In this document: positions 17,573-51,892 of the stretch, piece by piece
How positions within the stretch are numbered: position 1 is the stretch's first letter
Layout of the letters: every line of letters starts with the position of its first letter
Source: Vulcanimicrobiota bacterium
Lineage (GTDB): Bacteria > Vulcanimicrobiota > Vulcanimicrobiia > Eremiobacterales > Eremiobacteraceae
Direction of reading: 5' to 3'
NCBI GenBank assembly: GCA_963805945.1
Contig: CAWDVP010000001.1
Coordinates: forward strand, 192,001-256,000
Length of the DNA stretch: 64,000 nucleotides
Position numbers and translations under genes: made by a program
Notes under the pieces: model-generated
The model's database searches: none
What the model was told of the DNA's origin: nothing
The model's input: only the letters and a program-made list of their open reading frames with translations

Positions 17573-17585
17573 ATGCGGTCGCTCC

Positions 17586-31851: not shown

Positions 31852-31857
31852 GGATGC

Positions 31858-34240: not shown

Positions 34241-35534
34241 CGGCTCGCCGCGCGGCGCGACCTCATACCTCTCGTGCGATGCGGGGTCGAGCAGCTACAA
34301 AGCCGCGCTGTACGACGTCGGGTCGCCGCTGCCGCTCGATCCGCCTGCGCCGCGCTGGTCCGGCGAGATCTCGTGGAAGCACCTGCCCGGCAACGCGTCC
34401 GTCCGTTCGTCCTGGCAGGATGGCCGGGTGAGCGAAAGCGCGCTCATGCTGGAACGCCCTCTCGATGCGCCCGGCCGGCTGCTGCACGAGATGGCTGCGG
34501 CGGCGGTGCCCGCGTTCCCGGCGCCGGGCGACGTCGACGCCGCGGTCCATCGCATCGTGCACGCCGGTGACCTGCGGTCTTCGCCCGCCCGCGTCACGAT
34601 GGAGGTGCGGCGCACCATCGCGGCGGCGGCACCGCTCGCGCCGGAGCACAACGAGCTGGCGCTCGCCGGCATCGATGCGCTGAGCCGGGCGCTGCCCAGG
34701 GCCGAACAGTTCGTCGTCAGCGACTCCGCATATCACGCCGACATGCCCGACGCGGCGTCGACGTATGCGGTGCCGATGGCGTGGCAGAAGGTGTGGGGCA
34801 TCCGCAGGCTGGGCTTCCACGGGATCAGCCATAAGGATGCCGCGCAGCGCAGCGCTCGTCTGATCGGCGCGCCCTTGCGCGGGCTCAAAATCGTGACGTG
34901 CCATCTCGGCAACGGCTGTTCGCTTGCCGCGACGGCCGCGGGCTGCAGCGTCGACACGACCATGGGCTGGACGCCGCTCGAAGGCCTCGTCATGGGTCAA
35001 CGCTCGGGCAGCGTCGACCCGGGCATCATCCTCTATCTGCTCGAGCGCGGCCGCTATACGCCCGCCGAGCTGGCGCGCGTGCTCAACGAGCAGTCCGGCC
35101 TGCGCGGGATCTCCGGGCTGTCGGGTGACATGCGCGAGATCATCGCCGCTGCGACCGGCGGCCACCCGCAGGCGACGCTGGCGTTCGACGTCTTCACCCA
35201 TCGCCTGCGCGCGGCGATCGGCGCGATGACGGCGAGCCTCGGCGGCATCGACGTGCTGACGTTCACCGGCGGCATCGGCGAGAACGCGGCGGAGGTCCGG
35301 CTCGCCGCATGCTGCGGCCTCGAATTCCTCGGCATGCGTCTCGACGAAGAGCGCAATCGCGGCGTCGGCGCGAAGGACGCGGATATCGCGATGCCCGATT
35401 CGCGCGTGCGCATCCTCGTGGTGCACGCTCGCGAGACCTGGGCGATGGTTCGCGAATGCGCGCAGGCGTTCGAACGCCAACCCGAGCTCCGCTCGGGCAC
35501 TACCGACGGTTCTCGCGGAAGCAAGGAGCTGTAG
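34221..35534 (+). CDS. ackA: Acetate/propionate kinase
   Basis: AGSSSYK, HRIVH, LAPEHN, GFHGISH, CHLGNG, MGWTPLEG, FTGGIGEN. Confidence 0.92.
   Translation: MRARRRSGSPRGATSYLSCDAGSSSYKAALYDVGSPLPLDPPAPRWSGEISWKHLPGNASVRSSWQDGRVSESALMLERPLDAPGRLLHEMAAAAVPAFPAPGDVDAAVHRIVHAGDLRSSPARVTMEVRRTIAAAAPLAPEHNELALAGIDALSRALPRAEQFVVSDSAYHADMPDAASTYAVPMAWQKVWGIRRLGFHGISHKDAAQRSARLIGAPLRGLKIVTCHLGNGCSLAATAAGCSVDTTMGWTPLEGLVMGQRSGSVDPGIILYLLERGRYTPAELARVLNEQSGLRGISGLSGDMREIIAAATGGHPQATLAFDVFTHRLRAAIGAMTASLGGIDVLTFTGGIGENAAEVRLAACCGLEFLGMRLDEERNRGVGAKDADIAMPDSRVRILVVHARETWAMVRECAQAFERQPELRSGTTDGSRGSKEL
35481..35503 (-). repeat. REP family C copy in ackA 3' end
   Basis: One mismatch to 771-793. Confidence 0.7.
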
Positions 35535-35537
35535 ATC

Positions 35538-35994
35538 ATGGGACTCTTCCACACCATCCTCGTGCCCATCGACGGGTCGGAAGCCTCAGACGCCGCGTGC
35601 GCGCTCGCCGTGCGGCTCGCGGCGGAGCACGGCGCGTCGATCGCTTTCATCAACGTCGTGGAGACGGACAAGATCATCGCCTCCGTCGTCCCCGGGCAAG
35701 GCTACGCCGACCCGATGCCGGCGATCGAGGCGCTGCGCGCGGGGGGCGGCGCGATGCTCAAGGACGCGCTGGACGCTCGCCAAGGCGGCTGGCGTCGCCG
35801 CCACGTCTGAGCTCGCAGAAGGCGATTGCCTCCAGACCATTCTCGATCGGGCCAAGAGCGGCGACGCAGACCTCATCGTCATGGGCAGCCATGGCCGGGG
35901 CGGCGTGGCGCGCCTCATGCTCGGCAGCATCGCCGAGGGCGTGCTGCGAAACGGCACCACGCCGGTGCTCGTCACCAAGGCGCACAAGGACTGA
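35538..35994 (+). CDS. Universal stress protein (one frameshift)
   Basis: ILVPIDGSEAS, DLIVMGSHGRGG..LGSIAEGVLR..PVLV. Confidence 0.9.
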
Positions 35995-35999
35995 CGCCG

Positions 36000-36452
36000 A
36001 TGCTAGGACATCTCGACGCCGACGAGATCGACGAGCTGCTCTCGCGCGGGATCGTCGGGCGCATCGGCTGCCACGCCGGCGGGCGCACCTATGTCGTGCC
36101 GATCACCTACGCCTATGAAGACGGCGCGATCATCGGTCACAGCGCGAACGGCTTGAAGCTGCAGATGATGCGCGAGAATCCGAACGTGTGCTTCGAGGTG
36201 GACCAGATGGACGATCTGGCGAACTGGCGCAGCGTGATCGCGTGGGGCCGATATGAGGAGCTGGGCGGCGCTGAGGCGGACCATGCGATGGCGCAGCTGC
36301 TCGGCAAGCTGCTGCCGTTGACGGCGACGAGCGAGACGAGCCATCCCGTGAAGGACCTCGCGCATCAGCATCGCGCGATGGCCGAAGGCCTCACGGCCGT
36401 CGTCTATCGCATCCGCCTCACGGAGAAATCCGGCCGCTTCGAGAGGCGCTAG
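36000..36452 (+). CDS. Pyridoxamine 5'-phosphate oxidase / NimA-family flavin-binding protein
   Basis: GRIGC..YVVPITY, G.KL.MMRENPNVCFEVD, WRSVIAWG. Confidence 0.88.
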   Translation: MLGHLDADEIDELLSRGIVGRIGCHAGGRTYVVPITYAYEDGAIIGHSANGLKLQMMRENPNVCFEVDQMDDLANWRSVIAWGRYEELGGAEADHAMAQLLGKLLPLTATSETSHPVKDLAHQHRAMAEGLTAVVYRIRLTEKSGRFERR

Positions 36453-36456
36453 ACCA

Positions 36457-39022
36457 GTGGCTCGCACGAGCCCGGGCGACGCCGCCGGCGACGGTTGGCG
36501 CGCGGTAGAGTTGGGCGCGTCGGCTCGCATGTCGACCGCTGACGTCTTCACCGCGTTGGACGGTTCGCCGCAGGGGCTCTCGTCGGCGGAGGCGGCGCGA
36601 CGGCTGGTCGTCGCCGGTCCCAATTCGCTGCACCGGTACCACGCGCACGCAGGCGCCGTCCTCACCCGTCAGCTGAACAACCCGCTACTGCTGTTGCTCG
36701 CTGCCACCGCGATCGCAGCCGTCCTCCTCGGCGAGAAGACCGACGCGCTCATCATCTTGGCCATCGTCGGACTGAGCATCGGGCTCGGTTTTATCAACGA
36801 GTATCGCTCGGCGCGCGCGATCGAAGCGCTCCAAGCACAGGTCACGCATTCGGCCGTCGCCCTGCGCGACGGTCGCGTACAAGGGCTTGACGTCGCGACG
36901 CTGGTGCCCGGCGACGTCATCCTCTTGGATGTCGGTGACATCGTGCCCGCCGACGCCCGCCTGCTCGACGTCGCCGGCCTCGAGTGCGACGAGAGCGCGC
37001 TCACCGGCGAGTCGCAGCCCGTGGAGAAATCGGCGCTGCCGATGTCGACGGCGGCCGGCCCGCTCGAGCTGACGTCGTGCGCGTTCATGGGCACCGTCGT
37101 GCGCGGCGGCAGCGGCCGCGCCGTGGTCGTCCGCACGGGGACGCGCAGCGAGTTCGGCGCTATCGCCCAGCGGTTGAGCACCCGCCTCCCGGAGACGGTC
37201 TTCCAACAGGGGCTGCGCAAGTTCTCGACGATGCTGGTGCAGATCACGCTCGTGCTTTGCATCATCATCTTCATCCTCAACCTCTGGCTGCTGCACCGCC
37301 CGCTCTTCGAGTCGCTGCTGTTCGCCCTTGCCATCGCGGTCGGGCTCACGCCCCAGCTGTTGCCTGCCATCGTCACGATCGGGCTCGCGCGCGGCGCGAG
37401 CATGATGGCCCGCAAGTCGGTGATCGTCAAGCGCCTCGTCAGTATCGAGGATTTCGGCAACATCGAGGTGCTTTTCACGGACAAGACGGGGACGCTGACG
37501 GAGGGACGCATCACCTTCAGGGGCGCGATCGACGAACATGGCTCGCCCTCGGACGAGATCCTCTCGCTGGGGCTGTTGTGCAACGCGGCTTCGCCACAAG
37601 ATGGGGGCGCCATCGGCGGCACGCCGCTCGATCGCGCGCTGTGGGAAGCGCCGCCGCCCGCCGGACTGACGGGCAGCACACGCCTCGGTGCGGCGCCATT
37701 CGACTACACGCGGCGCCGCATGTCGGTGCTCGTACGAGGATGCGCTCGGACATCGCACCATCGTCACCAAGGGCGCCCCCGAGGCGGTCTTCGCCTGCTG
37801 TGCGCAGGTGCCCGCATCGCTGCGCGCATCGCTTGACGCGCAGTTCGCGGCCGGTTCGCGCGTCGTCGCCGTGGCGACTCGCGATGCGGGCGCGGCGACG
37901 TCGGTGAGCGCGGCGGACGAACATGACCTCACGCCGGCGGGCCTGCTGGTCTTCGAAGACGCGCCGAAAGCCGACGCACGCGAATCGCTCGACCGCTTGC
38001 GCGCGCTGGGCGTGGAGGTCAAGCTGCTGACCGGTGACAACGAGCGCGTGGCGCAGAAGGTGTGGGCGGATCTCGGCCTGGGCGAGGCGCGCTGCCTCAC
38101 CGGCGTCGAGATCGAAGCGATGGCGGATGCGCAGCTGCGGCGTGAGTTGCCCGGCGTGTCGATCCTCGCGCGCGTCTCGCCCGAACAGAAGTCGCGGATC
38201 ATCCGCGCGCAGCGGGCGACGGGGACGGACGTCGGATTCCTCGGCGACGGCGTCAACGACGCCATCGCGCTGCACGACGCGGACGTCGGCATCTCGGTCG
38301 ATTCGGCGGTCGACGTGGCCAAAGATGCGGCGGACATCGTGCTGCTCCGCAAGGATCTCGGCACGCTCGCCGACGGCGTCGTCGAGGGTCGCCGCATCTT
38401 CGCCAACACGATCAAGTACGTGCTCATGGGCACCTCGTCCAACTTCGGCAACATGGTGAGCACCGCCGGCGCGTCGCTCATCATCCCCTTCTTGCCGATG
38501 CTGCCGTCGCAGATACTGCTCAACAACCTGCTCTACGATGCGAGCGAGATGACCATACCGACCGACAACGTCGACCCGGAGATGCTGCGCCGGCCGGCGC
38601 ATTGGGACATCGGCATGATCCGCAGGTTCATGGCCGTGTTCGGACCGATCAGCTCGCTCTTCGATTTCGCGATCTTCGGCGCCCTGATCTTCATCTTCCA
38701 TGCGGGAGAGACGATGTTCCAGACCGGCTTCTTCGTCGAAAGTCTCGTCACGCAGACGCTCGTCATCTTCGCCATCCGCACGCGGCGCGTGCCCTTCTTC
38801 CGCAGCCGGCCGAGCGCGGCGCTGACGATCACGACGCTCGCGGCGGTCGCGATCGGCATATCGCTGCCGTTCTCGCCGCTCGCGGGCCTCTTCGGCTTCG
38901 CGCCGCTGCCGCAATTGCTCTTCGGAACGATCATGGCCGCGATCGTCACGGTCTACTTCACGCTCGTCGAGACGGCCAAGACCTTCTTCTACCGGCGGGT
39001 CATCGCCGAGGCGGGCCGATGA
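36457..39022 (+). CDS. mgtA: Mg2+-translocating P-type ATPase (one frameshift)
   Basis: [43 protein letters not shown]. Confidence 0.88.
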
Positions 39023-41740
39023 GCGCCGGCGGCGAGCGCGCCTGGCCGCACCGGCTCGACGCGTTGTTCTCACCGCGGAGCGTCGCGGTCATCGGGGCGA
39101 GCGAGCGGCCGCACAGCGTCGGCCGCATCGTCTTCTCGAATCTCACCGACGGGTCGTTCGGCGGCGCCGCGTTTCCGGTGACGCCGGCGCACGCGTCGGT
39201 GCTCGGGCATGCGGCGTTCGCGGACATCGGCGCAGTGCCTCGCCCAGTCGACCTCGCGATCATCGCGACGCCTGCGGCGTCCGTCCCCGGCATCGTCGCG
39301 CAGTGCGCCGCCGCCGGCGTCAACGCCGCCATCATCCTGTCGGCGGGGTTCCGTGAGACGGGCGCTGCGGGCGTCGAGCTGGAGCGGCGCATCGCGCTCA
39401 GCGCCGCCAGCACGGGCCTGCGCATCCTCGGCCCCAATTGTCTCGGGCTGATGTCGCCGGGCAGCGGTTTGAACGCGAGTTTCGCCGGCGAATCGGCTCT
39501 GCCCGGGTCTGTGGGATTCGTGAGCCAGAGCGGCGCGCTGTGCACCGCAGTGTTGGATTGGAGCCTGGGCGAGCGCGTCGGCTTCAGCGCGTTCGTGTCG
39601 GTCGGCTCGATGCTCGACATCGGCTGGGCCGATCTCATCTACTATCTCGGTGACGACCCGGCGTGCAAGAGCATCGTGTTGTACATGGAGTCGGTCGGCA
39701 ATGCCCGCACGTTCTTGTCGGCGGCGCGCGAGGTGGCGCAGTCCAAGCCGATCGTGGTCATGAAGGCCGGCCGGACGGCGGTCGCCGCGCATGCCGCCGC
39801 CTCGCACACCGGCGCGCTTGCGGGCAGCGACGACGTCATCGATGCGGCGCTGCGACGCTGTGGCGTGCTGCGCGTCGACGCGCTCGAAGACCTCTTCCAG
39901 ATGGCAGACGTGCTTTCGAAGCAGCCCCGGCCTCGAGGCAGACGACTCGCCATCGTGACCAATGCCGGCGGCGCCGGCGTGATCGCCGCGGACGCGCTCA
40001 TCCGGGGCGGCGGCGAGACGGCGACGCTGTCGGCCGCCAGCATGGCAGCGCTCGACGTCTTCTTGCCCCCGAGCTGGAGCAAGGGCGACCCGATCGATAT
40101 GTTGGGCGACGCCGATCCCGCGCGCTACGAGCGCACGCTTGAGATCGTGGCGGCGGACGAGGGCGTGGACGGGCTGCTCGTCGCGCTCGCACCGCAAGGC
40201 GTCGCCGATGCAGCCGACGTCGCCGCACGGGTGGCCCAAGCACGGGCGCTTGGATCGAAAGCCCGTGCTCGCGGCCTGGATCGGCGGACCAGGGGTGAGC
40301 GCAGGCGCCGCCGTGCTGCGCGACGCCGGCGTGCCGGTGTTCACCTATCCGGACACCGCGGCCCGCGTCTTCAACGACATGTGGCGCAGCGAGGCGAATC
40401 TGCGCGCGCTGTTCGAGACTCCCGCGCCTACCACGGAACTTGACGAGGCCTCGCGGCGCGCGGTCGCGGCCGAAGTCATCGCCGGCGCGCAGTCACGCGG
40501 GCGTACGGTGCTCACCGAAGCCGAAGCGAAACGCATGCTCGCCGCATATGGCATCCCGACGGTGCCGACGGCGAGCGCCTCGAACATCGCGGACGCCATC
40601 CTCGCCGCGAAGCGGATGGGCTATCCCGTGGTCGTGAAGCTCAACTCCGAGACGATCACGCACAAGAGCGAGGTCGGCGGCGTGTGCTTGGACGTCGCGG
40701 ATGCGAGCGGGGTCGAGAGCGCGTATCGCCAGATCGAAGCGTCGGTGCTGGCGGCGACGGGGCCGGGAAACTTCGCGGGCGTGAGCGTCGAGCCGATGAT
40801 CCGTCGGCGTGGGATCGAGCTGATCCTCGGCAGCGCCGTCGACGCGCAGTTCGGACCGACGCTCTTGTTCGGCACGGGCGGGACGCTCGCTGAGGTGCTC
40901 GCCGACAGCGCGGTCGAGCTGCCGCCCTTGACGACGACGCTCGCGCGGCAGCTCATGGAGCGGACGAAGATATACCGCGCCCTCAAAGGCATCCGTGGCG
41001 AGCCGCCGGCCGACCTCGCGGCGCTCGAAACCACGCTCGTCCGCTTCGGCACATTGGTCATGGAACAGCCGCGCATCCGCGAGATCGAGATGAACCCGCT
41101 GCTCGCCGGGAGCGATGGCGTGCTCGCGCTGGATGCCCGCGCGATCCTCCATCCAGCGGAATCGCGCGACGAGGACCTGCCGCGCCCGGCCATCCGCGCC
41201 TATCCGGCGCAGTATGCTGGTGAGTGCGTGTTGCGCGACGGCGCGCGCCTCCACATCCGGCCGATCCGTCCCGATGACGAGCCCATGATGCGCGAGTTCC
41301 ACGGCGCGCTGTCGAAGGAGAGCGTCTACCATCGGTACGCGGGCATCGTCTCGCTCGATCAGCGCATCGTCCACGAGAACCTCTCGCGCGTGTGCTTCAT
41401 CGACTACGCGCGGCAGATCGCACTCGTGGCGATCGCGGGCTCCACGATCGTCGCGGTCGCGCGGCTCATCCGTGCGCACGATGCGGATGAAGCGGAGTTC
41501 GCGCTCGTCGTGACGGACGCGTACCAGCGCCGCGGCCTCGGCATGGAACTCATGCGACGCCTATTGGCCATCGCCCGCACCGAACGCATCGGCGCCGTCG
41601 TCGGCTACATCTTGAATGAGAATCTCGGCATGCAGCGCATCTGCTCGACGCTCGGCTTCACGCTCGAGCCGGGTGACGCGAAGGATTTCGTCCGCGCGGT
41701 GTATCGGGTGACGCCCGACGTCCCGACCGGGCCGATCTAA
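39019..41740 (+). CDS. NDP-forming acetyl-CoA synthetase-like + GNAT (Pat/YfiQ-type protein acetyltransferase; one frameshift)
   Basis: [37 protein letters not shown]-terminal GNAT ([16 protein letters not shown]). Confidence 0.88.
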
Positions 41741-41756
41741 AGATCGGCCCCTACAT
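41729..41756 (-). repeat. REP family A copy, supplies the pat stop codon
   Basis: GGGCCGATCTAAAGATCGGCCCCTACAT. Confidence 0.8.
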
Positions 41757-42196
41757 CAAGATTTGTTCGAGCGTACTGCCAGGACCGGGATGGGCGACGC
41801 GCGCAGCACGCCTTCCGCGATGCTGCCGAGGAACAGGCGTGCGAGACCGTGGCGGCCGTGACTGCCGATGACGATGAGAGCGCAGCCGCGGGCGGCGGCG
41901 GCGTCAAGGATGGCGCGCACCGGCTCTTCCTCTTGCAGCACAAGCTCGTGTTGCACGCCCGCGCTCTTCGCGCGGGCACCCGCCTCGGCGAGGATCGCCT
42001 GGCCTTCGGCACGCAGTTGGTCGAACATCGGATTTCGGCCGCCGCCGTGGGCCACGATCGGCGCGTCCAAAACCGACAGGTCGAGCGCGTAGCAGAAGAT
42101 GAGCGAGCTGTGCCCCTTGGCCAGCGCTATCGCGAGGTCCGTCGCCGCGTGCGCGCAGTGCGATCCGTCGACGGCGACGAGGATGCGTTCGAACAC
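41756..42196 (-). CDS. Universal stress protein
   Basis: ILVAVDGS, LIVIGSHGRHG..LGSIAEGVLR. Confidence 0.92.
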   Translation of the reverse strand: MFERILVAVDGSHCAHAATDLAIALAKGHSSLIFCYALDLSVLDAPIVAHGGGRNPMFDQLRAEGQAILAEAGARAKSAGVQHELVLQEEEPVRAILDAAAARGCALIVIGSHGRHGLARLFLGSIAEGVLRASPIPVLAVRSNKS

Positions 42197-42266
42197 GGAC
42201 TGCCTGCCTTCCGCTTCGATGATACCGCCGGCTCAGGAAGAGGCCGTGAATTCCAGGCCCGCTTCT

Positions 42267-42863
42267 TCACACCTCGTGGATGGCGCCTTCCGATCGAGCG
42301 CCGAGCTCGGCGACGAGCTCCTCGATGAACCGATCGAGCGCCGGCCAATCGGTATACTCGTAGTCACGCGACGTGTCGGTGTCACCGCCCTCCCGCCTCG
42401 CGATGTCTTTCATCACGAGACGCAACAGCACGTTGTAATGGCTATAGAGCAGCGCGCCGGCGATCGGCATGACGCGGGCCGGGCGCCAGTGCGTCTCCTC
42501 GAAGAAGGCGTCGAGCATGCCTTGTACCTCATGCGCCGCCTTCGCCCGCGCTTCGGGGCTGGCGGACGCCTTCTCGGCGCCGGCCTCCGAGAGGCTGATC
42601 GAAAGGAGCGCCGTCCGCATGTGTTCGAGCATCGCCTTGTGCTTGCGCACGAAAGCGATCATCTCGGGCTCGTGGTGCCCGGTATGGATCGACGCGACGA
42701 GGATGACGGCGCTATAGGCGCTCAGATCGATATCGCCGTGCATGCTCGCGACATCGACCACTTCCTCGGGCACCGCGTGCGTCCGGACGGTGGCGGCGAC
42801 GTGTTCGGCCACCCGCTTCGCCTGGCCCTCGCGTGTGGCGTAGGCGATGAGAATCTGTTTCAC
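42267..42863 (-). CDS. hemG: HemG-type flavodoxin (menaquinone-dependent protoporphyrinogen oxidase-like)
   Basis: YATREGQ, ASIH.G, AGALLYSHY, DTSRDYEYTDW. Confidence 0.78.
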   Translation of the reverse strand: MKQILIAYATREGQAKRVAEHVAATVRTHAVPEEVVDVASMHGDIDLSAYSAVILVASIHTGHHEPEMIAFVRKHKAMLEHMRTALLSISLSEAGAEKASASPEARAKAAHEVQGMLDAFFEETHWRPARVMPIAGALLYSHYNVLLRLVMKDIARREGGDTDTSRDYEYTDWPALDRFIEELVAELGARSEGAIHEV

Positions 42864-42888
42864 GCAACCCTCGATCTTCGGCGAGAGA

Positions 42889-43356
42889 TCACGAGCGGGC
42901 GCTCTCTTCCATGACGTCTTTGATGCGGCGAAGCAGTTCGCGCGCGGTCTCCTGTGCGATGCGGTGGCCCAACGCCATATCGAACACCTGCCCCGCTGGA
43001 CCGAACGGCGGCTCGTAGTCGCCAGTCAGCGAGAGGAAGCATCGGCCGCCCGGCTCGGCGTGCAGCGTGAGCGAACCCTTGAATGTCGGAAAGGCGCCGC
43101 CGTGCTTCGGTGACCAGTGCAGCGACAATTGCTGCTGCTGGCGATCGAGCTCGTCGCCGGCCGGCGCATACGTGGCGACCACCTCCCGGCCGATGCTCAC
43201 GCCGCCCGGCACGCCGAGCACGTCTCCCGGCAGCTTCAACTCCAGCGTCCCCGGCGTTGCGTTGGGAACGGCGAGCTGGTCCATATACCATTCCAAGTAC
43301 GACGGCACTTGGGCCGCGGGCCAGCGCACGAGCAGGCCTTCATGGAGATGTGCCAT
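42889..43356 (-). CDS. Hypothetical protein, SRPBCC/START-like stress-cluster type
   Basis: FPTFKGSL..L.GDYEPPFG.AGQVFD..LGHRIA. Confidence 0.65.
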   Translation of the reverse strand: MAHLHEGLLVRWPAAQVPSYLEWYMDQLAVPNATPGTLELKLPGDVLGVPGGVSIGREVVATYAPAGDELDRQQQQLSLHWSPKHGGAFPTFKGSLTLHAEPGGRCFLSLTGDYEPPFGPAGQVFDMALGHRIAQETARELLRRIKDVMEESARS

Positions 43357-43362
43357 GCCTCT

Positions 43363-43406
43363 ATTCCACCGCACCGGTCTGCCGGGCATATGAACTTCCG
43401 GTGAAG
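43363..43406 (-). promoter_or_regulatory. Direct-repeat site plus -10 TGGAAT (leaderless)
   Basis: Plus-strand TGAAC 43391 and TGAAG 43402; -10 at 43363-43368. Confidence 0.6.
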
Positions 43407-43453
43407 TCCGGCGGGCGTGCGGGACCGCTCTCGCCTCGACCGAAGGTGCCGTC

Positions 43454-44458
43454 ATGCAGGCGATGCTGTTGGAAACTGCTGGTCGCGCGTTGCGTGCCGC
43501 CGACGTGCCTGTCCCCACACCGGAAGCCCATCAGGTGCTCGTGCAGGTGGACGCGTGCGGCGTGTGCCGGACGGATCTCCACATCCTCGACGGCGAGCTG
43601 GCCAAGCCGAAGCTGCCGCTCGTGCTCGGACACGAGATCGTCGGGCGCGTCGCAGCGCTTGGCGCTGACGTCTCCCGTTTCGCGGCCGGCGATCGCGTCG
43701 GCATCCCGTGGCTCGGCTGGACGTGCGGGCACTGCGTCTTCTGCCGCTCGGGGCGCGAGAACTTGTGTGCGCGCGCGCGCTTCACCGGCTACGACATCGA
43801 CGGCGGCTACGCCGAATACACCGTGGCCGACGAGCGCTATTGCTTTTCCATCTCCTCGATCTACTCGGACGCCGAAGCGGCTCCGCTCATGTGCGCGGGG
43901 CTTATCGGCTATCGCTGCCTGCGCGCGGCGGGCGACGCGGCGCGCCTCGGCATCTACGGCTTCGGCGCGGCGGCGCACATCATCGCGCAGGTGGCGCGCC
44001 ACCAGGGCCGCCGGGTGTTCGCATTCGTGCGGCCGGGCGACGACACGGCCCAGCGCTTCGCGCTCGACCTCGGCGCGGTCTGGGCAGGTGACTCGACGCA
44101 GACGCCGCCCGAGCCGCTCGACGCCGCCATCATCTTCGCGCCTGCGGGCGAGCTGGTGCCGGCGGCGCTCGCAGCCCTCGAACGCGGCGGCACCGTCGTG
44201 TGCGGCGGCATCCACATGAGCCCGATCCCATCATTCGACTACGATTTGCTGTGGGGCGAGCGCTCGATCCGCTCGGTCGCCAATCTCACGCGCCGCGATG
44301 CCGAGGAGTTCCTCGCGCTCGCGCCTGCCGTGCCGGTCCGCACGCACATCATGAACTATCCGCGCGCGCGGGCGGATGAGGCTCTCGCCGACCTGCGCGC
44401 CGGGCGCGTGCGCGGGGCGGCGGTGCTCGTTTCGCAGGGACTAGCTCCAAGAAAATAG
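43454..44458 (+). CDS. Zinc-dependent alcohol dehydrogenase (AdhP-like)
   Basis: CGVCRTD, GHE, CGHCVFC..C, GFGAAA. Confidence 0.93.
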   Translation: MQAMLLETAGRALRAADVPVPTPEAHQVLVQVDACGVCRTDLHILDGELAKPKLPLVLGHEIVGRVAALGADVSRFAAGDRVGIPWLGWTCGHCVFCRSGRENLCARARFTGYDIDGGYAEYTVADERYCFSISSIYSDAEAAPLMCAGLIGYRCLRAAGDAARLGIYGFGAAAHIIAQVARHQGRRVFAFVRPGDDTAQRFALDLGAVWAGDSTQTPPEPLDAAIIFAPAGELVPAALAALERGGTVVCGGIHMSPIPSFDYDLLWGERSIRSVANLTRRDAEEFLALAPAVPVRTHIMNYPRARADEALADLRAGRVRGAAVLVSQGLAPRK

Positions 44459-44490
44459 CGCGGCCTCCCCGGTCGGGGGAGAGCCGCGCT
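44457..44490 (-). terminator. Hairpin terminator between adh and hsp20
   Basis: AGCGCGGC-CTCCCC..GGGGAG-GCCGCGCT stem followed by ATTTTC on the minus strand. Confidence 0.55.
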
Positions 44491-44524
44491 GCCGCCTCCA
44501 TGGGCGGTGACTTGTACGGGCCGA

Positions 44525-45001
44525 CTAGCCCTTGATGCCGATCCGTTCGGCTTGGGCTGCTTTCGGCGCCGGTATCTTGACCTTGAGGATCCCGTGCTCG
44601 TACTCCGCTTCGACCTTCTTCGGGTCGATGGGCTCCGGGAATGTGAGCGAGCGGAGGAACTCGCCGCGCTGGCGTTCGCGATAGAAGTACTGAGGACGAT
44701 CCTCTTTCTTCATCTCTTCGCTGCGCGCGGTGATGGTGAGCGCCTTGCCGCTGGCCTGGATCTCGATGTTCTCCTTCTTCATCCCAGGCAGCGCGCACTC
44801 GACGACATACATGCCCTCTTTCTCGTACACGTCAAGATCGAAGGTGAAGGCCGGCGTCCGGAACGCCGTTTGCGCGGCGGGCAGCCAGCCAAGAAGCGGT
44901 TTGAGGCCTTCGCTCATGCGTGTGAATTCCGCGAATGGGTCATATAGTTCGACCGTCTGCAGTTCTTTGGTGGCTCTCTCGCCGTTGATGGTGGTCGCCA
45001 T
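44525..45001 (-). CDS. Hsp20/alpha-crystallin small heat shock protein
   Basis: LPGMKKENIEI, RERQRGEFLRS, AEYEHGIL. Confidence 0.95.
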   Translation of the reverse strand: MATTINGERATKELQTVELYDPFAEFTRMSEGLKPLLGWLPAAQTAFRTPAFTFDLDVYEKEGMYVVECALPGMKKENIEIQASGKALTITARSEEMKKEDRPQYFYRERQRGEFLRSLTFPEPIDPKKVEAEYEHGILKVKIPAPKAAQAERIGIKG

Positions 45002-45053
45002 GATGTCCCTCCTTGTTCAGAGCGGTTCCGGTTTTGCCCGGCGACCTACAGCA

Positions 45054-45098
45054 AGCGTACTCGCGTCATCAGAGCGATGCTATGAAGATGGCGTGAGG
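45054..45098 (-). promoter_or_regulatory. Direct-repeat site plus -10 TACGCT upstream of hsp20
   Basis: Plus-strand TGAAG 45083 and TGAGG 45094. Confidence 0.6.
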
Positions 45099-45109
45099 GT
45101 TGCGACTTT

Positions 45110-45814
45110 TCACGACCCAGCGCCTCGCTGCGCCGCGTGCTCGAGCAGCCTGCGGACCTCGTCGTCTTGGGTCTGGGAGAAATCTTCGTACCACGCGCCG
45201 ACGGCGAAGAACGGATCGGGGGTCTGCGCGCACACGACCTCGTCGACCATTTCAGCGAGTTCGGCGGCCGCCTCCGGCGCGGCCACAGGGACCGCGACGA
45301 CGATCGCCGCGGGCCGCTCGCGCCGCAGCGCCTGCACGGCGGCTTGCATGCTCGAACCGGTCGCCAGCCCGTCGTCCACGAGGATCACGGTGCGGCCTTG
45401 TACGACCGGTGGCGGGCGATGGTTGCGGTATGCAGCCTCACGGCGTTCCACTTCGTGACGCGCTTGCTCCACGATCTCCGCGATCGTCTGCTTCGGCAGA
45501 TCGAGGTGGCGGGCCAGTTCCTCGTCGATCAACACCAGCCCGCCGCTTGCGGCGGCGCCAAGCGCCAGCTCTTCATAGCCCGGCACGCCGATCTTCTTGA
45601 CGACGAGGATGTCGAGCGGCACGCGGAGCGCCGACGCGATCTCAAAGGCGACGGGCACGCCGCCGCGGGGCAACGCCAGGACGACGACGTCAGGACGATC
45701 TGCGAAGCTAGAGAGCAGGCCGGCGAGCACGCGCCCGGCATCGGTGCGATCGCCAAACCCATGCGCCCGCGGGTGTGTCCGGGCGCCGGCATGGCTGCGA
45801 TCGAGTGTGTTCAT
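45110..45814 (-). CDS. Phosphoribosyltransferase (Rv0571c/Rv2143-like)
   Basis: DR.DAG, LALPRGGVPV, VDDGLATG, AVGAWYEDF. Confidence 0.9.
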   Translation of the reverse strand: MNTLDRSHAGARTHPRAHGFGDRTDAGRVLAGLLSSFADRPDVVVLALPRGGVPVAFEIASALRVPLDILVVKKIGVPGYEELALGAAASGGLVLIDEELARHLDLPKQTIAEIVEQARHEVERREAAYRNHRPPPVVQGRTVILVDDGLATGSSMQAAVQALRRERPAAIVVAVPVAAPEAAAELAEMVDEVVCAQTPDPFFAVGAWYEDFSQTQDDEVRRLLEHAAQRGAGS

Positions 45815-46077: not shown

Positions 46078-47244
46078 CTAGTGCAGCGCTCCGAAGGTCG
46101 TGTCGAATTGCAGGTTCATCCGCCACGCCGGCATCGTGCCGCTTTGCATCCCCACCTCGCCGTTGAGCGTCCACGCGGTGGCCGCACGCGACGAGACGTG
46201 GCGCGAGACGACGATGCCGAGATCGACGTTGCCGTATTGGGTGATCGTGCCCAACCCGTCGTTGGTCATCTCTTTGCGAACGCCGAGCATGACCACGTTC
46301 TTGTAGAGCGGTTCGGTGAGGTCGATCGAGTAGCCGTAGCTGTGCGCCGGGCCGAACGCGGGACCGGCGTTCGAGTCGTTGTTGTTCTGCACGAGCGCGA
46401 ACAATCCGGGGAGGCCGTGCTGCGGGTCGATCTCGATATATGGTCCGACCGCGCTGTAATTGTCAAAGGAGCCGTCCGAGAGCGGATACGAGCCCGTCGC
46501 TCCGTACACGCCTGCCTCGATCGGCTTATCCGCGCGTGCGTATGCGAGGCGGTACTGGAACGTCCGGTCGGACTCCCAGTCGAAGGCGGTGTTCAGATTG
46601 TCGCCGGTGGTCACATAGGCGGCTTCGGCGACGTAGCCCGGACGGATGTATTGCATCTTCGCGCCCCAGCGATTGGACGACAGGCCGTACGTGTGCTCGC
46701 CGACGGTCATCGACGGCGGTACGAATCCGGACAGCTCGAACCACTGGCTGAACGGAGAGGGAGCCGGCAGTTCCAGCTTACCGACAGTCAAGTGCCCGTC
46801 ACGGTGGAGCAGGTTGTTGTAGGTCAACCACAGCGTGTCGGTGCCGCCCGGCTGATCGTTCTGCTGGATCCATTGGTGCAGATGCCAGGTGATGTCGTTG
46901 CCTATGTAGCCCGCGCCGTGCAGCGACAGATTGCCGGTCTGCATAACGTACGGCTCGGCGGCGTCCTGCGTGTCGTAGAAGATCGCTTCGGCGCCCCACA
47001 GCGGGAAGGCCTTATGGATGGTGCTCGCGTCCAGCGACGAGTAGTCGCTGCGCTGCACGTATCGTCCGTACGCGTTGAGCGCCGGCACGGAGGAGTGGCA
47101 GACCTCGCAATTGATGCCGTACGCTTGGGCGAAGACCGGCATGGCCTGGGTCGGGCGCAGGCTCTCGATCACGAACGCGACCGCGAGCACGCCCCCGACG
47201 ATCAGGATGGTAGCCCGGATGGTGCCTCGGGCGGGCGCGTTCAC
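46078..47244 (-). CDS. Cyc2-like monoheme cytochrome c-porin fusion
   Basis: Signal peptide then MPVFAQAYGINCEVCHSSVPALNAYGR, followed by ~320 aa of amphipathic beta-strand-like sequence. Confidence 0.75.
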   Translation of the reverse strand: MNAPARGTIRATILIVGGVLAVAFVIESLRPTQAMPVFAQAYGINCEVCHSSVPALNAYGRYVQRSDYSSLDASTIHKAFPLWGAEAIFYDTQDAAEPYVMQTGNLSLHGAGYIGNDITWHLHQWIQQNDQPGGTDTLWLTYNNLLHRDGHLTVGKLELPAPSPFSQWFELSGFVPPSMTVGEHTYGLSSNRWGAKMQYIRPGYVAEAAYVTTGDNLNTAFDWESDRTFQYRLAYARADKPIEAGVYGATGSYPLSDGSFDNYSAVGPYIEIDPQHGLPGLFALVQNNNDSNAGPAFGPAHSYGYSIDLTEPLYKNVVMLGVRKEMTNDGLGTITQYGNVDLGIVVSRHVSSRAATAWTLNGEVGMQSGTMPAWRMNLQFDTTFGALH

Positions 47245-47597
47245 GGCTTGACCTCGACCGTCAGCACCATGTCCCCATGTCCAGGGCCGCACGGTTGGCT
47301 GCAATGGATCTTATAGGTCCCGGCCGTCTTCGGCGTCACCATGACGTCGACGAACTTGCCCGGCGCGATCGTCGTGTCGGGGATGCCGAGTTCCGTGGAC
47401 GAGATGCCGTGCACGCCGCCCGATGAGGTGAGATGCAGCGTGGTGGTCTCTCCGACGTGCATCTCGACGGTCGCCGGGGTGAACTTCCAGTTCGAGGCCA
47501 CGACGTCGACCGTGGGATGGGCGAAGGCCGGCAGTGCCAGCATGAGAACCGCGCCGCCAGCAAGGCCGGCAAGCCGATGTGCGAGTGAAAATGTCAT
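47241..47597 (-). CDS. Exported stand-alone cupredoxin with CuA motif
   Basis: Signal peptide (..PAFA|H), WKFTP, VHG, CSQPCGPGHGDM; stop overlaps next start (GTGA). Confidence 0.85.
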   Translation of the reverse strand: MTFSLAHRLAGLAGGAVLMLALPAFAHPTVDVVASNWKFTPATVEMHVGETTTLHLTSSGGVHGISSTELGIPDTTIAPGKFVDVMVTPKTAGTYKIHCSQPCGPGHGDMVLTVEVKP

Positions 47598-47619
47598 GGT
47601 TATCTCTCCTTCTGACATC

Positions 47620-47673
47620 AGTCTACCAGAGCGGGTCGCGCAGGACGTGAAGCCGTTTGGAAGGTGTGTGAAG
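47620..47673 (-). promoter_or_regulatory. Triple direct-repeat site plus -10 TAGACT upstream of CuA-cyc2 operon
   Basis: Plus-strand TGAAG 47648, GGAAG 47659, TGAAG 47669. Confidence 0.62.
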
Positions 47674-47770
47674 GGTGCGACTAGGGACGCACGGGTGCTG
47701 GCGGCGCCTGCGAGAATCGTCCCGCTGAGTTAGACGCATCGGCCCAGGAAGCGACCGCTCTATCGGCCGG

Positions 47771-49402
47771 TCACCACGTGCGCATGCCGGGCGCGCCGTA
47801 CGGATGCACGTGCACCAGGTCGTACATCGGCCCGACGTAGGCGAGGAAGGCCAGCACGACCGCCGCGAGCGCCCACATGCCGATCTTGTCGAACGCGGCC
47901 GGCGTGGGCATGGCCTCGTCCTCGGGCTGCGCGAACGTCACGGCCTCGTCCGCGGGCTCATCGTGCAGGCGCGTGCCGATCGCCACGGTCGCGAACATGA
48001 GGATGCTGATGAAGAGGATCGCGCCGCCGATCGCCGCCGCGATCATCTCGGGCATCCACAGGCTCGCCGCGGCCGAACCGAAATACGTCACGTCGTCGGT
48101 GCGCCGCGGCGAGCCGAGCAGGCCGGCCCAATGCATGGCGGTGGACATCACGAGCATCCCGATGAACCAGGCATAGGTCTGTGCCAGCGCCAGTTTCGGC
48201 GCCCACAACTTGCGCCCGGTGAGCGCCGGCACCAGCCAATAGGCGATGCCGACGAACGACAGCGCCACCGGGCCGCCCACGGTCACATGGAAGTGCCCGA
48301 CGATCCACATGGTGTTGTGCACCAGCGTGTCCATGCTGTACGAGGCGTTCACCACGCCGCCGAAACCGCCGAAGATGAACAGGATCATGCCGAGCGCAGG
48401 CCCCGCGAACGCCGGGTTGCTCCACGGCAGCGTGGCGACGGCGCCGATGAAGCCGGGGCGGCCCTTGCGCCGCGCGGCCATCTCGAACGAGGCGAAGATC
48501 GCGAACGCGGTCATGATCGACGGGATGACGACGCCGTAGGTCGTCATGGTGTGGACCCATTTCCATGCCGCCGAGATGCCCGGCTCCATGAACTGGTGAT
48601 GCAGACCGACCGGCGTCGAGAGGATCAACAGCAGCAGAAACGCCAGACGCGTGAGCGCGTCGCTGAACACCTTGCCGCCGTATAGCGTCGGCACGATGTT
48701 GTACCAGATCAGATACGCGCCCATGATCCAGAAGTAGACGAGCGGATGGCCGAAGTACCAGAACAGCATGCGCGTCATCATCACGTCGACGGTCGGCGTC
48801 CAGCCGAGCGACCACGGGATGAGGAAGAACAGCATCTCGATCGCCACGCCGATCGTGGCGATGAACCACATGACGAACGTGCAGGTGGCGCCGTGCACCA
48901 TGAGCGGCAGCGCCTCGCCGGGGCGCGTCCGCCGGAAGTACACGACGTTCTCGAGGATCTCGTAGAGCACGAACCAGGTCGCGACGACGAGCACGGTCGC
49001 GCCGATGTAGAACGACGGATGCGCCTTGAGCGGCGCGTAGAACGTGTAGAGCACCGACGCGCTGCCGCTGAGGATGGCGACGGTGGCGGTGAGCGTGCCC
49101 GCGAGCATCAGCGCGAAGCCCGACCAGGAAAGCGCGAGCGAGCGCTCGCGCGGTATGGTGCGATACACGCCGAACAGCGACAGCCCGCAGATGAAGAACG
49201 TGGTGAACACGATCGCCATGAGCACGCCGTGCGCGGTGAGCATGCGATAGTAGTCGAACCAGTGCGGTGCGGCGAACCAGCGCGCGCGAGAGAACGCTTG
49301 CAGCAGGCCGAAGATCGCGCCGACGACGATCGCGCCGGTGGCCGTGTACACGTAGCCGAGGATGAGACGGTTCTCGCGCTGGACCTGCGCCGACGCCGCC
49401 AT
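47771..49402 (-). CDS. cbaA: ba3-type (B-family) heme-copper oxidase subunit I
   Basis: YYRMLTAHGV, LYTFYAPL, FWYFGHPLVYFW, GLHHQF, HNTMWIVGHFH, PRR. Confidence 0.93.
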   Translation of the reverse strand: MAASAQVQRENRLILGYVYTATGAIVVGAIFGLLQAFSRARWFAAPHWFDYYRMLTAHGVLMAIVFTTFFICGLSLFGVYRTIPRERSLALSWSGFALMLAGTLTATVAILSGSASVLYTFYAPLKAHPSFYIGATVLVVATWFVLYEILENVVYFRRTRPGEALPLMVHGATCTFVMWFIATIGVAIEMLFFLIPWSLGWTPTVDVMMTRMLFWYFGHPLVYFWIMGAYLIWYNIVPTLYGGKVFSDALTRLAFLLLLILSTPVGLHHQFMEPGISAAWKWVHTMTTYGVVIPSIMTAFAIFASFEMAARRKGRPGFIGAVATLPWSNPAFAGPALGMILFIFGGFGGVVNASYSMDTLVHNTMWIVGHFHVTVGGPVALSFVGIAYWLVPALTGRKLWAPKLALAQTYAWFIGMLVMSTAMHWAGLLGSPRRTDDVTYFGSAAASLWMPEMIAAAIGGAILFISILMFATVAIGTRLHDEPADEAVTFAQPEDEAMPTPAAFDKIGMWALAAVVLAFLAYVGPMYDLVHVHPYGAPGMRTW

Positions 49403-49404
49403 CG

Positions 49405-49872
49405 CTATTTCACCTCGATCGCGCCGTACATGAAATGATGACCGGCGCCGCAATACTCGTTGCACAGCAGCAGATGCTGACCGGGCGTGCGGAAGACATG
49501 GGTCGCCTTGCTGACCCAGCCGGGCACCACGAGCATGTTCACGTCGGTGTCGGTGATGAAGAAGCCATGTACGACATCGGGACTCGTGCTGTAGAACGTC
49601 ACCTTCGCGCCGACGGGCACGGTGATGCGCGGCGGCGTGAACGAGAACACGCGGGCCACGACATAGGCCTCATACTCGTTCGGGCCGGTCTGATGCAGGC
49701 CCGGCGCGTCGAACGGCGCGGTCTGCGCCACCTTGGTGGGGTCGATGGTCTTCTCGTAGCTCGGTGGGATGATGCCGTCCATGAGCGCCGCGCTGCCGAT
49801 GATCGCCAAGAAGATGACGAGCGCCACGACACCAAAACCGAGCCACAGCTTCTCGAGCCGATGGACGTGCAC
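49405..49872 (-). CDS. cbaB: ba3-type oxidase subunit II (CuA)
   Basis: One TM helix, SPDVVHGF, CNEYCGAGHHFM. Confidence 0.93.
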   Translation of the reverse strand: MHVHRLEKLWLGFGVVALVIFLAIIGSAALMDGIIPPSYEKTIDPTKVAQTAPFDAPGLHQTGPNEYEAYVVARVFSFTPPRITVPVGAKVTFYSTSPDVVHGFFITDTDVNMLVVPGWVSKATHVFRTPGQHLLLCNEYCGAGHHFMYGAIEVK

Positions 49873-49873
49873 G

Positions 49874-49993
49874 CTACCACCTGCTCGCCATGAGCGCGTA
49901 CATCAGAAGCCAGCCGACGACGATGAAGACGCCCAAGCCCGTGAGAAAGCGCGCGGTGCCCGGCAGCGGTTGGTCGTCGCGGTCCTGGCTCAT
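49874..49993 (-). CDS. cbaD: ba3-type oxidase subunit IIa (39 aa)
   Basis: MSQDRDDQPLPGTARFLTGLGVFIVVGWLLMYALMASRW, single TM, directly upstream of cbaB; missing from ORF track. Confidence 0.75.
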   Translation of the reverse strand: MSQDRDDQPLPGTARFLTGLGVFIVVGWLLMYALMASRW

Positions 49994-50002: not shown

Positions 50003-50047
50003 ATGATACCAGCCGTCCGACGGACGGCGTATGAAGATTCTGCGAAG
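50003..50047 (-). promoter_or_regulatory. Direct-repeat site plus -10 TATCAT upstream of cbaDBA
   Basis: Plus-strand TGAAG 50032 and CGAAG 50043. Confidence 0.62.
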
Positions 50048-51892
50048 TTAACCGACGACGCTGCCCGCGGCTTCGCGCAGGCGGGCGCCCTCGATCGCGA
50101 CGCTCGCGAGCTGCGCGAAGACCTCGATCGTGCGCACCGTCTCCTCGCTCGGCACGAGGTGGTCGCGCGGCTCGTCGGGCGACAGCACGCCCATGAGCAC
50201 GCCGTTCGAATCGAAGAACGGGAAGAGCAGCAGGTCGTCCTCGTGCCATTCACCCTGCGCGCCGCGCGGCAGCGTGGCGAGCTGCGGGTTGCGCACGACG
50301 CCGCCCTCGATGTGCAGTTCCATCGGCGCGTAGTAATAGGTGTCGCGCACGCGCGCGCGTTCGGTCATCGACGCCTGCAGCTCGGCGTCGGGCACCTCTT
50401 GCCCGACGACCGCCGCCGCGAAACCGATCGCCGCGCGTCGCACGAACACGTTGCGCGTGGGGTCGCGCACGACGATGGTGCCCGCGGTGAAGTTGAACTG
50501 GCTGACGGCGACCTCGAGGATGCGCTTGAGGACGCGGTCGAGGTCCCGCTCCTTGAAGATGGACGCGGTGAGGTCGAGGATGCTCGCCAGCCTGGCCGCC
50601 TGTTTGCGCCGCCCTTCGGCGGCGGTCTCGGCGTCGCGGTAGAGGCGCTGCATCTCGCGATTGGTCTCGGTCAGTTCTTCAGCGCGACGCTGTTCGGTGG
50701 TGAAGAGATGCACGTTCTCGATCGCCGCCGCCGCCAGGTGGGCGAAGAGCGCGACGTTGTCCAGCGTGGCTTTGGACGGCACCTTGTCGTCGGCAGGCGC
50801 ATCCGGCTCGAGCAGCCCGATGACGTCGCCCGATGACGAGTGCAGGCGGAAGAGCAGCGTATCCGCTTCGTTCCAATCGTCGGGCGAGTTGCGCGCCTCG
50901 CCGAGACGGCTGCGATCGAAGGTCAGCGCCGGATCCGTATACCACGTCTGCTCTTCGACGGGCGCGTAATACACGCTCGGGCGGACCTCGAAGCGTTTGT
51001 CGAGCTTCAGGTCGACCTGGGCGAACGCGAACTCGCCGTCGCGCAGGGCCGCCTCCACATCGGGCGCGTAGCCGCGCACCGCGCTGGCGCGATAGACCTC
51101 GCGATCCCTGTCCGCCACCAGAATCGAGCCGGCCCGGAAGCCGAATGCTTTGATCGTGGCGTCCAGGATGCGGTCGAGCAGCATCGCCAGCTCGCGTTCA
51201 CGCATGAGCGTGACGCTGAGCTCGACGACCTTGCGCAGGGTCGCGGCTTGCGCCTTCGTCTCGGCGAGCATGATCTGTTCGCTGCGCGCCGCGTTCGAGA
51301 GCGCTGCGCTGCGAAGCGAGAGCGCCGCATTGCGCTCGTCGATCTCACGGACGAGCAGTCCGATGTTGAGGACATTGAGCCACAGCACCGCCGCCTGGAA
51401 GAACAGGCTGACCGACGTCGATGATGGCGTAGGACGCAGCCAATGCGACAAGACGATGACGGCGGTAGCGCCAAAACCCGCGGCGAGCGCTCCCGGATAA
51501 CGCTCACGCGCAGCCGCGATCGCGGTGAAGATGATGAGGCCGACCCACGTTCCCGGGAATACCGGCTCGTAGGCCACCACGACGGCCGAGAGGGCGATGA
51601 AGTCCGCGACGAGGACGAGCCGCGCCATCTGGCGGATCGCCGTGAAGCTCTGCGCGCGGTTGTTGAACCACGCGGCCGCGAGGCTCGCGACCAGCCAGAA
51701 CACGATCGCCGCGGGCCTGACCCACGCCGGGCTCGAGGCCGGCAACCAGTAGGCGATCGCCGCGGTCATGAAGACCGTGATGAGGCGCACGCGAAGAATG
51801 CCCGCTTCGATGCGGCGCTGCTCTTCGAGAGTCGTGCCTAAGATGTCGTCTATCATGGCGTTGGGTGCGGCGCCGGCTGTGCGGGCCGCCAT
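50048..51892 (-). CDS. Membrane protein with ~5-6 TM helices and two tandem GAF domains, no output domain
   Basis: Hydrophobic N-terminus; two homologous repeats (..YYAP.E..W.E.D.LLF...G..G.L.PD.P..VPS..FA.LA..AIE). Confidence 0.8.
   Translation of the reverse strand: MAARTAGAAPNAMIDDILGTTLEEQRRIEAGILRVRLITVFMTAAIAYWLPASSPAWVRPAAIVFWLVASLAAAWFNNRAQSFTAIRQMARLVLVADFIALSAVVVAYEPVFPGTWVGLIIFTAIAAARERYPGALAAGFGATAVIVLSHWLRPTPSSTSVSLFFQAAVLWLNVLNIGLLVREIDERNAALSLRSAALSNAARSEQIMLAETKAQAATLRKVVELSVTLMRERELAMLLDRILDATIKAFGFRAGSILVADRDREVYRASAVRGYAPDVEAALRDGEFAFAQVDLKLDKRFEVRPSVYYAPVEEQTWYTDPALTFDRSRLGEARNSPDDWNEADTLLFRLHSSSGDVIGLLEPDAPADDKVPSKATLDNVALFAHLAAAAIENVHLFTTEQRRAEELTETNREMQRLYRDAETAAEGRRKQAARLASILDLTASIFKERDLDRVLKRILEVAVSQFNFTAGTIVVRDPTRNVFVRRAAIGFAAAVVGQEVPDAELQASMTERARVRDTYYYAPMELHIEGGVVRNPQLATLPRGAQGEWHEDDLLLFPFFDSNGVLMGVLSPDEPRDHLVPSEETVRTIEVFAQLASVAIEGARLREAAGSVVG

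Follow-up and report, generated by a model that had tools for sequence, protein, structure and literature searches.

A conserved CuA-Cyc2 gene pair beside a ba3-type oxidase in a Vulcanimicrobiota bacterium: a candidate chain for electron uptake at low oxygen

A stretch of 64,000 nucleotides (nt) from a Vulcanimicrobiota bacterium (contig CAWDVP010000001.1 of assembly GCA_963805945.1; hereafter the window, whose positions serve as coordinates unless stated otherwise) carries five clustered genes, all on the minus strand, for an oxidase of the ba3 type, a soluble CuA protein and a Cyc2-like cytochrome-porin. The CuA and Cyc2-like genes are a real, conserved module, with a well-supported partner for the Cyc2-like protein and a switch shared with the oxidase; the substrate and the direction of electron flow are what we infer. 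The locus may serve as a low-oxygen electron-uptake chain from an extracellular donor via Cyc2 and CuA to ba3, providing extra energy for a heterotroph, and we give this reading a probability of about one half. The chain is proposed here from sequence, models and gene context; its activity, expression and binding are predictions. The five genes are:

49874-49993, minus strand: cbaD, 39 amino acids (aa), CbaD-like single-helix subunit
49405-49872, minus strand: cbaB, 155 aa, subunit II, complete CuA site, single membrane helix
47771-49402, minus strand: cbaA, 543 aa, subunit I of a B-family (ba3-type) heme-copper O2 reductase, HPxVY intact
47241-47597, minus strand: CuA protein, 118 aa, exported single-domain CuA cupredoxin
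46078-47244, minus strand: Cyc2-type monoheme cytochrome-porin, 388 aa

The preliminary description of this DNA had placed the five genes on one strand and had proposed translational coupling of the last two. Both statements were confirmed; the stop of the CuA gene and the GTG start of the Cyc2-like gene overlap as GTGA. A spacer of ~173 nt separates cbaA from the CuA gene. All five genes are intact, frameshift-like splits fall elsewhere in the window and the GC level is uniform along it. The label CbaD is tentative for the 39-aa gene and was given by position and analogy.

By its sequence and predicted structure, the protein of 46078-47244 is Cyc2-like in build and descent and belongs to a divergent branch. 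Cyc2 is defined by a signal peptide, a single CxxCH, AxPxFAR[Q/K][T/Y] upstream and PxL downstream of it, and an OprO/OprP-like barrel of 16 strands (10.1101/228056). A Cyc2-type N-terminus had been claimed in the preliminary description, which holds for signal peptide, CxxCH and PxL, but the motif reads PxFAQAY and not PxFAR. A signal-like helix is followed by TQA, the cut and MPVFAQAYGINCEVCHSSVPALNAYGR, and this N-terminal motif occurs only here among the six-frame open reading frames of the host genome. The predicted signal peptide (hydrophobic helix 5-27 and AxA-type cut, read from sequence and model) ends at A34, so that M35 would be the mature start. The only CxxCH lies at 46-50 and the barrel at ~82-383. 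P54-A-L56 follows four residues past CxxCH and is kept in 119/119 close relatives; the length of 388 aa lies above the 365 aa required at least for Cyc2. Upstream, AMPVFAQAY retains A, P, F, A and Y and has lost R and Q/K.

With AlphaFold2 (81-row alignment) 16 long strands were predicted, preceded by a signal helix and a small heme region, at a predicted local distance difference test score (pLDDT) of 92.4. The best structural match of the barrel among 48,161 chains was OprP (Z 24.4, root mean square deviation (rmsd) 3.0, 284 residues), the template also reported for Cyc2 (10.1101/228056), and Foldseek retrieved 16-strand porins with the barrel model. Thus, the beta-barrel on which the preliminary description depended is predicted, and the outer membrane it needs is indicated by host genes for BamA and LpxC. 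No match to the barrel protein was obtained in Pfam, NCBIfam or PDB sequences. The family profile aligned full-length with proteins having PxFARKY-type starts (probability 100, E 1.5e-39, 352 columns), and among the distant hits aligned by it the strict motif was present in 7/22. The agreement in all features except the upstream motif, together with this profile homology, argues for a divergent branch of Cyc2-like build and descent. A plain porin was ruled out by the invariant CxxCH. With its AMPxFAQAY motif the family fails the published PxFAR[QK][TY] filter (0/119 close relatives matched); the strict form AxPxFAR[Q/K][T/Y] was the filter used for the tree in 10.1101/228056.

The conservation of gene order was examined in 75 distinct loci with 78 strong Cyc2 copies. 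They comprise the 21 closest loci and 60 stretches from the top genome matches, picked for long contigs and spread of genera, minus 6 duplicates. A gene with CuA motif lies directly upstream of Cyc2 in 58/78 copies (57 by script, and L074, which the distance rule missed). Among the 20 other copies, 17 of them unfused, are one with a C-terminal CuA fusion, two with C-terminal cytochrome c fusions, one with CuA ~1 kb upstream, one with a divergent gene carrying three CxxCH and one cut by the contig end. The conserved unit is CuA with Cyc2 and not the five genes.

The fusions point to the function of the CuA protein. CuA is fused to the C-terminus of the barrel in P0004, P0200 and L047, and cytochrome c takes this position in e.g. 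P0002, P0006, P0016, P0151, L029 and L058; the fused single chain has ~510 aa. An upstream CuA gene is absent from the three fused loci within the 75. In a quick tree, the cytochrome c fusion P0151 and the CuA fusions P0200/P0004 are sister branches in one starred clade. The strongest argument for an electron carrier of the barrel is that a class I cytochrome c can stand in this position instead of CuA, and we consider the CuA protein as redox partner of Cyc2 with strong confidence. Its ligand set His...CxxxCxxxHxxM (H63, C99, C103, H107, M110) and its fold place it among CuA domains; the ligands are invariant in 55/55 aligned homologues, and the model superimposes on the CuA domain of Thermus ba3 with an rmsd of 1.2-1.3 A over 90 columns. 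Between the two Cys, 52/55 proteins have Ile or Val, compared to Glu in oxidase subunits. A second CuA domain, 56% identical, was found at G000 C2:681193-681993, fused behind a signal peptide and another domain, which we take to be copper-amine-oxidase-N-like.

A role outside energy metabolism, with ba3 nearby only through shared regulation, appears very unlikely. The module would then act in metal handling or redox sensing, for example in periplasmic Fe(II) detoxification or uptake, or in supplying CbaB with copper for its CuA site. The PCuAC chaperone was found in 0/5 genomes of the genus (four of these are 96-98% complete; the host genome has 2.3 Mb and is 82% complete), the CuA protein is structurally close to an uncharacterised Bacillus cupredoxin, among others, and a His, possibly an extra copper site, stands right after the predicted signal cut in 33/55 CuA proteins; these observations would fit. 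The invariance of all five CuA ligands, as in electron-transfer sites, speaks for an electron carrier, and a copper chaperone would not be exchanged for a class I cytochrome c. Furthermore, a gene beside the caa3 operon is presumably SCO-like, and genes for iron or copper transport were not recognised in the stress island of the host, described below.

CbaA aligns end to end with subunit I of Thermus ba3 (E ~1e-120) and keeps HPxVY. This nearest relative, the cross-link Tyr, six His ligands and a CuA subunit II place the enzyme among the B-family O2 reductases; the ba3-type call is one of sequence similarity, from which heme types b and a3 are not readable. The cross-link Tyr separates O2 reductases from NO reductases, and an NO reductase was ruled out by its retention. 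Since bd oxidase was found in 0/5 genus genomes, ba3 is the sole oxidase of high-affinity type found.

The link of CuA-cyc2 to ba3 is real, but looser than the preliminary description implied. Within the fetched stretches cbaA was present in 26/75 loci, and the order cbaA-cua-cyc2 was kept in 12/75, which all belong to the host's family or border on it. Among 58 Cyc2-bearing genomes, 41 have ba3 somewhere and 17 gave no ba3 match. A fixed five-gene operon was rejected, as CuA-cyc2 has its own promoter box and is itself the conserved unit, and as 17/58 Cyc2 carriers gave no ba3 match. The proposed chain from Cyc2 over CuA to ba3 thus gained from the fusions in its CuA part and from a shared box in its ba3 part, and lost by these carriers. 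The cluster has no c-type shuttle, but the genome encodes two anchored monoheme cytochromes c (one lipoprotein-type, C6:241594-242070; another at C1:28341-28901) and a caa3-type CoxB. We hold with moderate confidence that the CuA protein feeds ba3.

This looser link, the near-universal and often multi-copy occurrence in the class, and the caa3 of the host would also suit an uptake conduit whose main donor is not iron or whose main sink is not ba3. The donor would be reduced humic quinones or some other soluble reductant, the sink the available oxidase (caa3, ba3) or the reaction centre in phototrophic relatives. The second-best box of the genome, before a sulfide:quinone-reductase-like flavoprotein gene (G000 C2:587414-588856, locus L082; NF049943, below the family cut-off), could be explained likewise. 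It speaks against this variant that the best box lies at the cbaD promoter, adjoining cua-cyc2 in the host's family, and that a monoheme pore has been argued to suit dissolved Fe2+ (10.1101/228056). We regard it as quite unlikely.

The shared switch is indicated by direct repeats in front of both transcription units. The boxes, the candidate regulators and further features of the window are:

47646-47674, minus strand: direct-repeat box of three TTC units with 11-nt period, upstream of the CuA gene
50030-50047, minus strand: direct-repeat box, 37-54 nt before cbaD
30311-31030, plus strand: response regulator of the OmpR/PhoB family at the left end of the island, candidate box binder
31027-31764, plus strand: soluble histidine kinase, 245 aa, no separate sensor domain, beside the regulator
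31808-45814: stress/fermentation island with boxes at 31808 (plus), 42251 (minus), 43406 (minus) and 45098 (minus)
16078-18125, minus strand: bc complex with Rieske protein and a cytochrome b-cytochrome c fusion; CuA may have an alternative redox partner in it

TTCNC-N6-TTC with 11-nt period was found upstream of 42/63 CuA genes, compared to 1.6 in shuffles; other periods were far rarer (14 at period 10, 8 at period 8). Of the 4.6 million positions in the host genome, the cbaD site had the top score with a matrix trained on CuA promoter regions only. At a threshold of at least 12 bits, sites were detected before 15/21 cbaD, 9/17 lone cyc2 and 9/39 usp genes, and in the controls before 0/28 neighbouring genes and in 0.8% of random windows. 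In the window the box also precedes genes for phosphoketolase, a Usp, an SRPBCC protein and Hsp20. A search for palindromes in front of the cua, cbaD, usp and SRPBCC genes gave no FNR/CRP-like dyad, and a sigma-70 scan gave no site. The Pho regulon was rejected as an explanation; on visual inspection no phosphate gene was recognised at the top-ranking boxes, which were not scanned systematically.

The island encodes phosphoketolase, acetate kinase, Usp proteins, a P-type ATPase, acyl-CoA synthetase-GNAT, flavodoxin, SRPBCC, alcohol dehydrogenase, Hsp20 and phosphoribosyltransferase. SRPBCC-like and Usp genes are repeatedly clustered around cyc2 and cba across families (loci L006-L081), often in several copies. 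Orthologues of the regulator (at least 47.5% identity; other paralogues of the host reach 47%) are present in 27/75 loci, directly after cyc2 in L030, L035, L036 and L037. OmpR-type proteins bind direct repeats of 11-nt period, and the box-marked set of respiratory, Usp, Hsp20 and fermentation genes presumably resembles hypoxia regulons. By this analogy the OmpR-type pair may bind the box and respond to low oxygen or redox, which we propose with moderate to weak confidence. In the kinase, C78, C104, C111 and C146 of the ATPase domain are invariant in 16/16 orthologues, and this four-cysteine kinase (31027-31764) is a candidate redox or metal sensor. A C-terminal CxxC occurs in 11/16 orthologues, and in some loci the kinase gene is reduced to its first 60-70 residues.

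The same regulon could belong to an outward conduit under oxygen shortage, which we judge unlikely. Electrons would pass from quinol via the bc complex and CuA to Cyc2 and on to Fe(III) or humic quinones, with ba3 as a parallel sink under the same regulator. For At. ferrooxidans a reverse use of Cyc2/rusticyanin has been proposed, acidophilic heterotrophs have been described to reduce Fe(III) under microaerobic conditions (PMC8790237), and Cyc2 homologues are enriched in a humic bog hypolimnion (PMC6344600). The box in common with fermentation genes, a heterotrophic host for which RuBisCO and hydrogenase were not found, the bc complex in the window and the carriers without ba3 match (17/58) would fit as well. 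CuA centres lie near +250 mV, a potential too high to reduce most Fe(III) oxides above pH 4, which speaks against export. In addition, the Cyc2 proteins assayed in the papers cited here oxidise Fe(II) (10.1101/228056, PMC13692758, PMC13647500), and a cultured relative, which may or may not carry the module, did not grow without O2 under any of the conditions tried, with Fe(III) possibly but not certainly among them (PMC9758169).

For the uptake chain the following course is proposed. At low O2 cua-cyc2 and cbaDBA would be switched on by the OmpR-type regulator. The donor, dissolved outside the cell and most likely Fe(II) in free or organically bound form, would reach the heme through the Cyc2-type barrel. 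The soluble CuA protein would carry the electrons through the periplasm to the CuA site of CbaB, and ba3 would reduce O2 and build proton motive force. Fe(II) as donor and an inward flow are assumed with moderate confidence. RuBisCO and NiFe hydrogenase were each found in 0/5 genus genomes, which suggests supplementary energy for a heterotroph and not autotrophy; autotrophic iron oxidation was rejected for the genus by the lack of RuBisCO (0/5). BamA, LpxC and CcsA families, each in 5/5 genus genomes, indicate a diderm with c-heme maturation, the BamA match of the host being partial (model positions 1-135 of 325). A cultured relative has an outer membrane with lipopolysaccharide and is a strict aerobe (PMC9758169), and in mine settings Eremiobacterota have been listed as predicted oxidisers of iron (PMC8357290, PMC13594681).

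The range of the family was investigated with a profile and with the quick tree (83 rows, 37 of them of the host-type family). The 37 rows form one side of a branch with a support of 95 in the Shimodaira-Hasegawa-like approximate likelihood ratio test (SH-aLRT), separate from a second Eremiobacterota family with LPxFAHRY start and from FARKY-type proteins. This second Cyc2-like family (P0270-P0307) forms a clade of its own and was not detected in the host genome. A profile search with the family did not reach the reference Cyc2 sequences. Profile matches were obtained in 322/401 genomes of the phylum and in 29/29, 280/297 and 5/5 genomes of three families of the same class (314/331 in total). 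By hand count ~215/331 of these match at E 1e-60 or better; the weaker matches probably include the LPxFAHRY family. All these tallies include nine genomes marked unpublished, on which nothing else here depends. Cyc2-like genes are often multi-copy in the class, and in L044, L045, L048 and L061 cyc2 or the cua-cyc2 unit is duplicated in tandem or nearby.

Several of these and further results weigh against the uptake chain. The host-type family is, in the quick tree, a separate long-branched clade with no assayed members, the strict motif is missing from all its close relatives, and it is very common in the class, including metagenome-assembled genomes (MAGs) from soil without known iron metabolism. 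The full gene order is confined to few loci near the host, 17/58 Cyc2 carriers gave no ba3 match and 20/78 Cyc2 copies are without CuA directly upstream. In the box counts the relatives are not independent. The matrix is weak genome-wide: 111 sites reach at least 13.5 bits, and the CuA site of the host itself (14.6 bits) is not within the top 40. Phosphoketolase-acetate kinase behind a box fits oxygen shortage with electron excess equally. True RuBisCO (E below 1e-130) was found in only 7/58 Cyc2 carriers, other c-type carriers are present in the host genome, and Cyc2 has been proposed to run in reverse in Acidithiobacillus (PMC8790237).

The N-terminus may also have a function at the heme. 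Ala stands at -1, before x-P-x-F, in 319/332 homologues; the first mature position is variable and is taken by M, I, L, V, T or Y. The sequenced N-terminus of Cyt572 is YPGFARKY, and AlphaFold3 models of three Cyc2 proteins have one axial His (PMC13741234). Electron paramagnetic resonance of Cyc2 indicated two axial ligands, interpreted as His or Met (PMC13692758). Cytochrome f starts with YPIFAQQNY (PMC2291561), and its heme is bound by the N-terminal Tyr1 and His25 (PMC8044140). By analogy, the mature N-terminal amine may be the sixth heme ligand of Cyc2. In the close family M35, H121 and H184 are conserved and would be alternative ligands. A search of the PDB with the 31-residue heme peptide did not return cytochrome f; hence the parallel is drawn from the papers and the alignment.

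Outside the host, the closest loci have 60-65% identity and are from Eremiobacterota/Vulcanimicrobiota MAGs. We count 18/21 closest loci as labelled with these names or with genera that we take to be members (Cybelea); of the other three, one is labelled Aquilonibacter and two otherwise (Binatus, Acidoferrum). No match to the locus was obtained in a plasmid search. Directly upstream of cbaD, at 50048-51892, lies a gene conserved in the genus (72-77% identity) for a membrane protein in which GAF domains, but no output domain, were recognised. Cytochrome b (16078-18125) and phosphoketolase, P-type ATPase and acyl-CoA synthetase (36457-41740) are apparently divided between frames, which suggests assembly frameshifts. 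A contig end of lower GC (G000 C6:1-2600, L085) carries a DmsE-like protein with four CxxCH beside a sulfatase-like frame and may be foreign or misassembled.

A joint reading goes further and is, as a whole, doubtful. Most of this class, common in acidic soils worldwide, would have a hidden uptake regulon with a Cyc2 branch that escapes the filters, a plastocyanin-like CuA shuttle to ba3 that is swappable for cytochrome c, and an undescribed four-cysteine kinase switch; the N-terminal amine would be the sixth ligand in all Cyc2, as in cytochrome f. A free CuA domain as mobile carrier would, if true, be a new use of this centre. With inward flow, cryptic oxidation of iron or humics would be expected in heterotrophic Eremiobacterota from soil, peat, Antarctic desert and mine waste; motif-filtered surveys would undercount these organisms, and a widespread soil lineage would have an overlooked energy source. 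As the partner is supplied by nature, sometimes fused in a chain of ~510 aa, donor, direction and potentials are directly measurable.

Compared to known systems, the regulon is presumably closest to ResDE, SrrAB and DosR, in which one regulator governs respiratory, Usp, Hsp20 and fermentation genes, with 11-nt direct repeats of OmpR type. The kinase differs from these, as it is soluble, has 245 aa and four invariant cysteines in the ATPase domain, and has no PAS, GAF or membrane sensor. With the Cyc2 family (Mariprofundus Cyc2PV-1, Acidithiobacillus Cyc2, Leptospirillum Cyt572, Ghiorsea Cyc2TAG1) the protein shares signal peptide, one CxxCH, PxL four residues past it, the 16-strand OprP-like barrel, a length of >365 aa and the mature start x-P-x-F. 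It differs by AMPxFAQAY instead of AxPxFAR[QK][TY], by its own clade and by a short tail past the last strand, where some relatives have a fused CuA or cytochrome c. In E. coli, Fe(II) oxidation was obtained with a Cyc2 of cluster 3 (PMC13647500); the function outside cluster 1 was called uncertain (10.1101/228056) and the natural periplasmic partner of neutrophilic Cyc2 was stated to be unidentified (PMC13692758).

The Acidithiobacillus rus operon is cyc2-cyc1-cup-coxBACD-rus (PMC10654088). The likeness drawn in the preliminary description stands in that cyc2, a periplasmic copper protein and a heme-copper oxidase occur in one neighbourhood, but no cyc1, rusticyanin or aa3 genes are within the cluster, which is rus-like in function at most. 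In contrast to that operon, the copper motif is binuclear CuA and not type 1, a diheme Cyc1 is missing, the oxidase is of the B-family and not aa3, two boxes replace one operon and the host is heterotrophic. With Thermus thermophilus ba3 the end-to-end subunit I, HPxVY, the small subunit and the CuA subunit II are in common. Thermus uses the soluble cytochrome c552 (PDB 2fwl), whereas no close soluble c552 gene is present in this cluster and a free CuA domain adjoins.

In a literature search from which subscription journals were largely missing, no report of a CuA-Cyc2 pair, a TTCNC-N6-TTC regulon or amine ligation in Cyc2 was found. Cyc2 in Eremiobacterota has already been reported (PMC8357290, MAG 15; PMC13594681, Baltobacteraceae), and these hits may or may not belong to the host-type family, since the second family with LPxFAHRY exists. 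As far as the available parts of these reports extend, they share with the present locus the phylum and the proposed iron oxidation; the CuA partner and the regulon appear new, and gene context, partner and regulator are seen only here.

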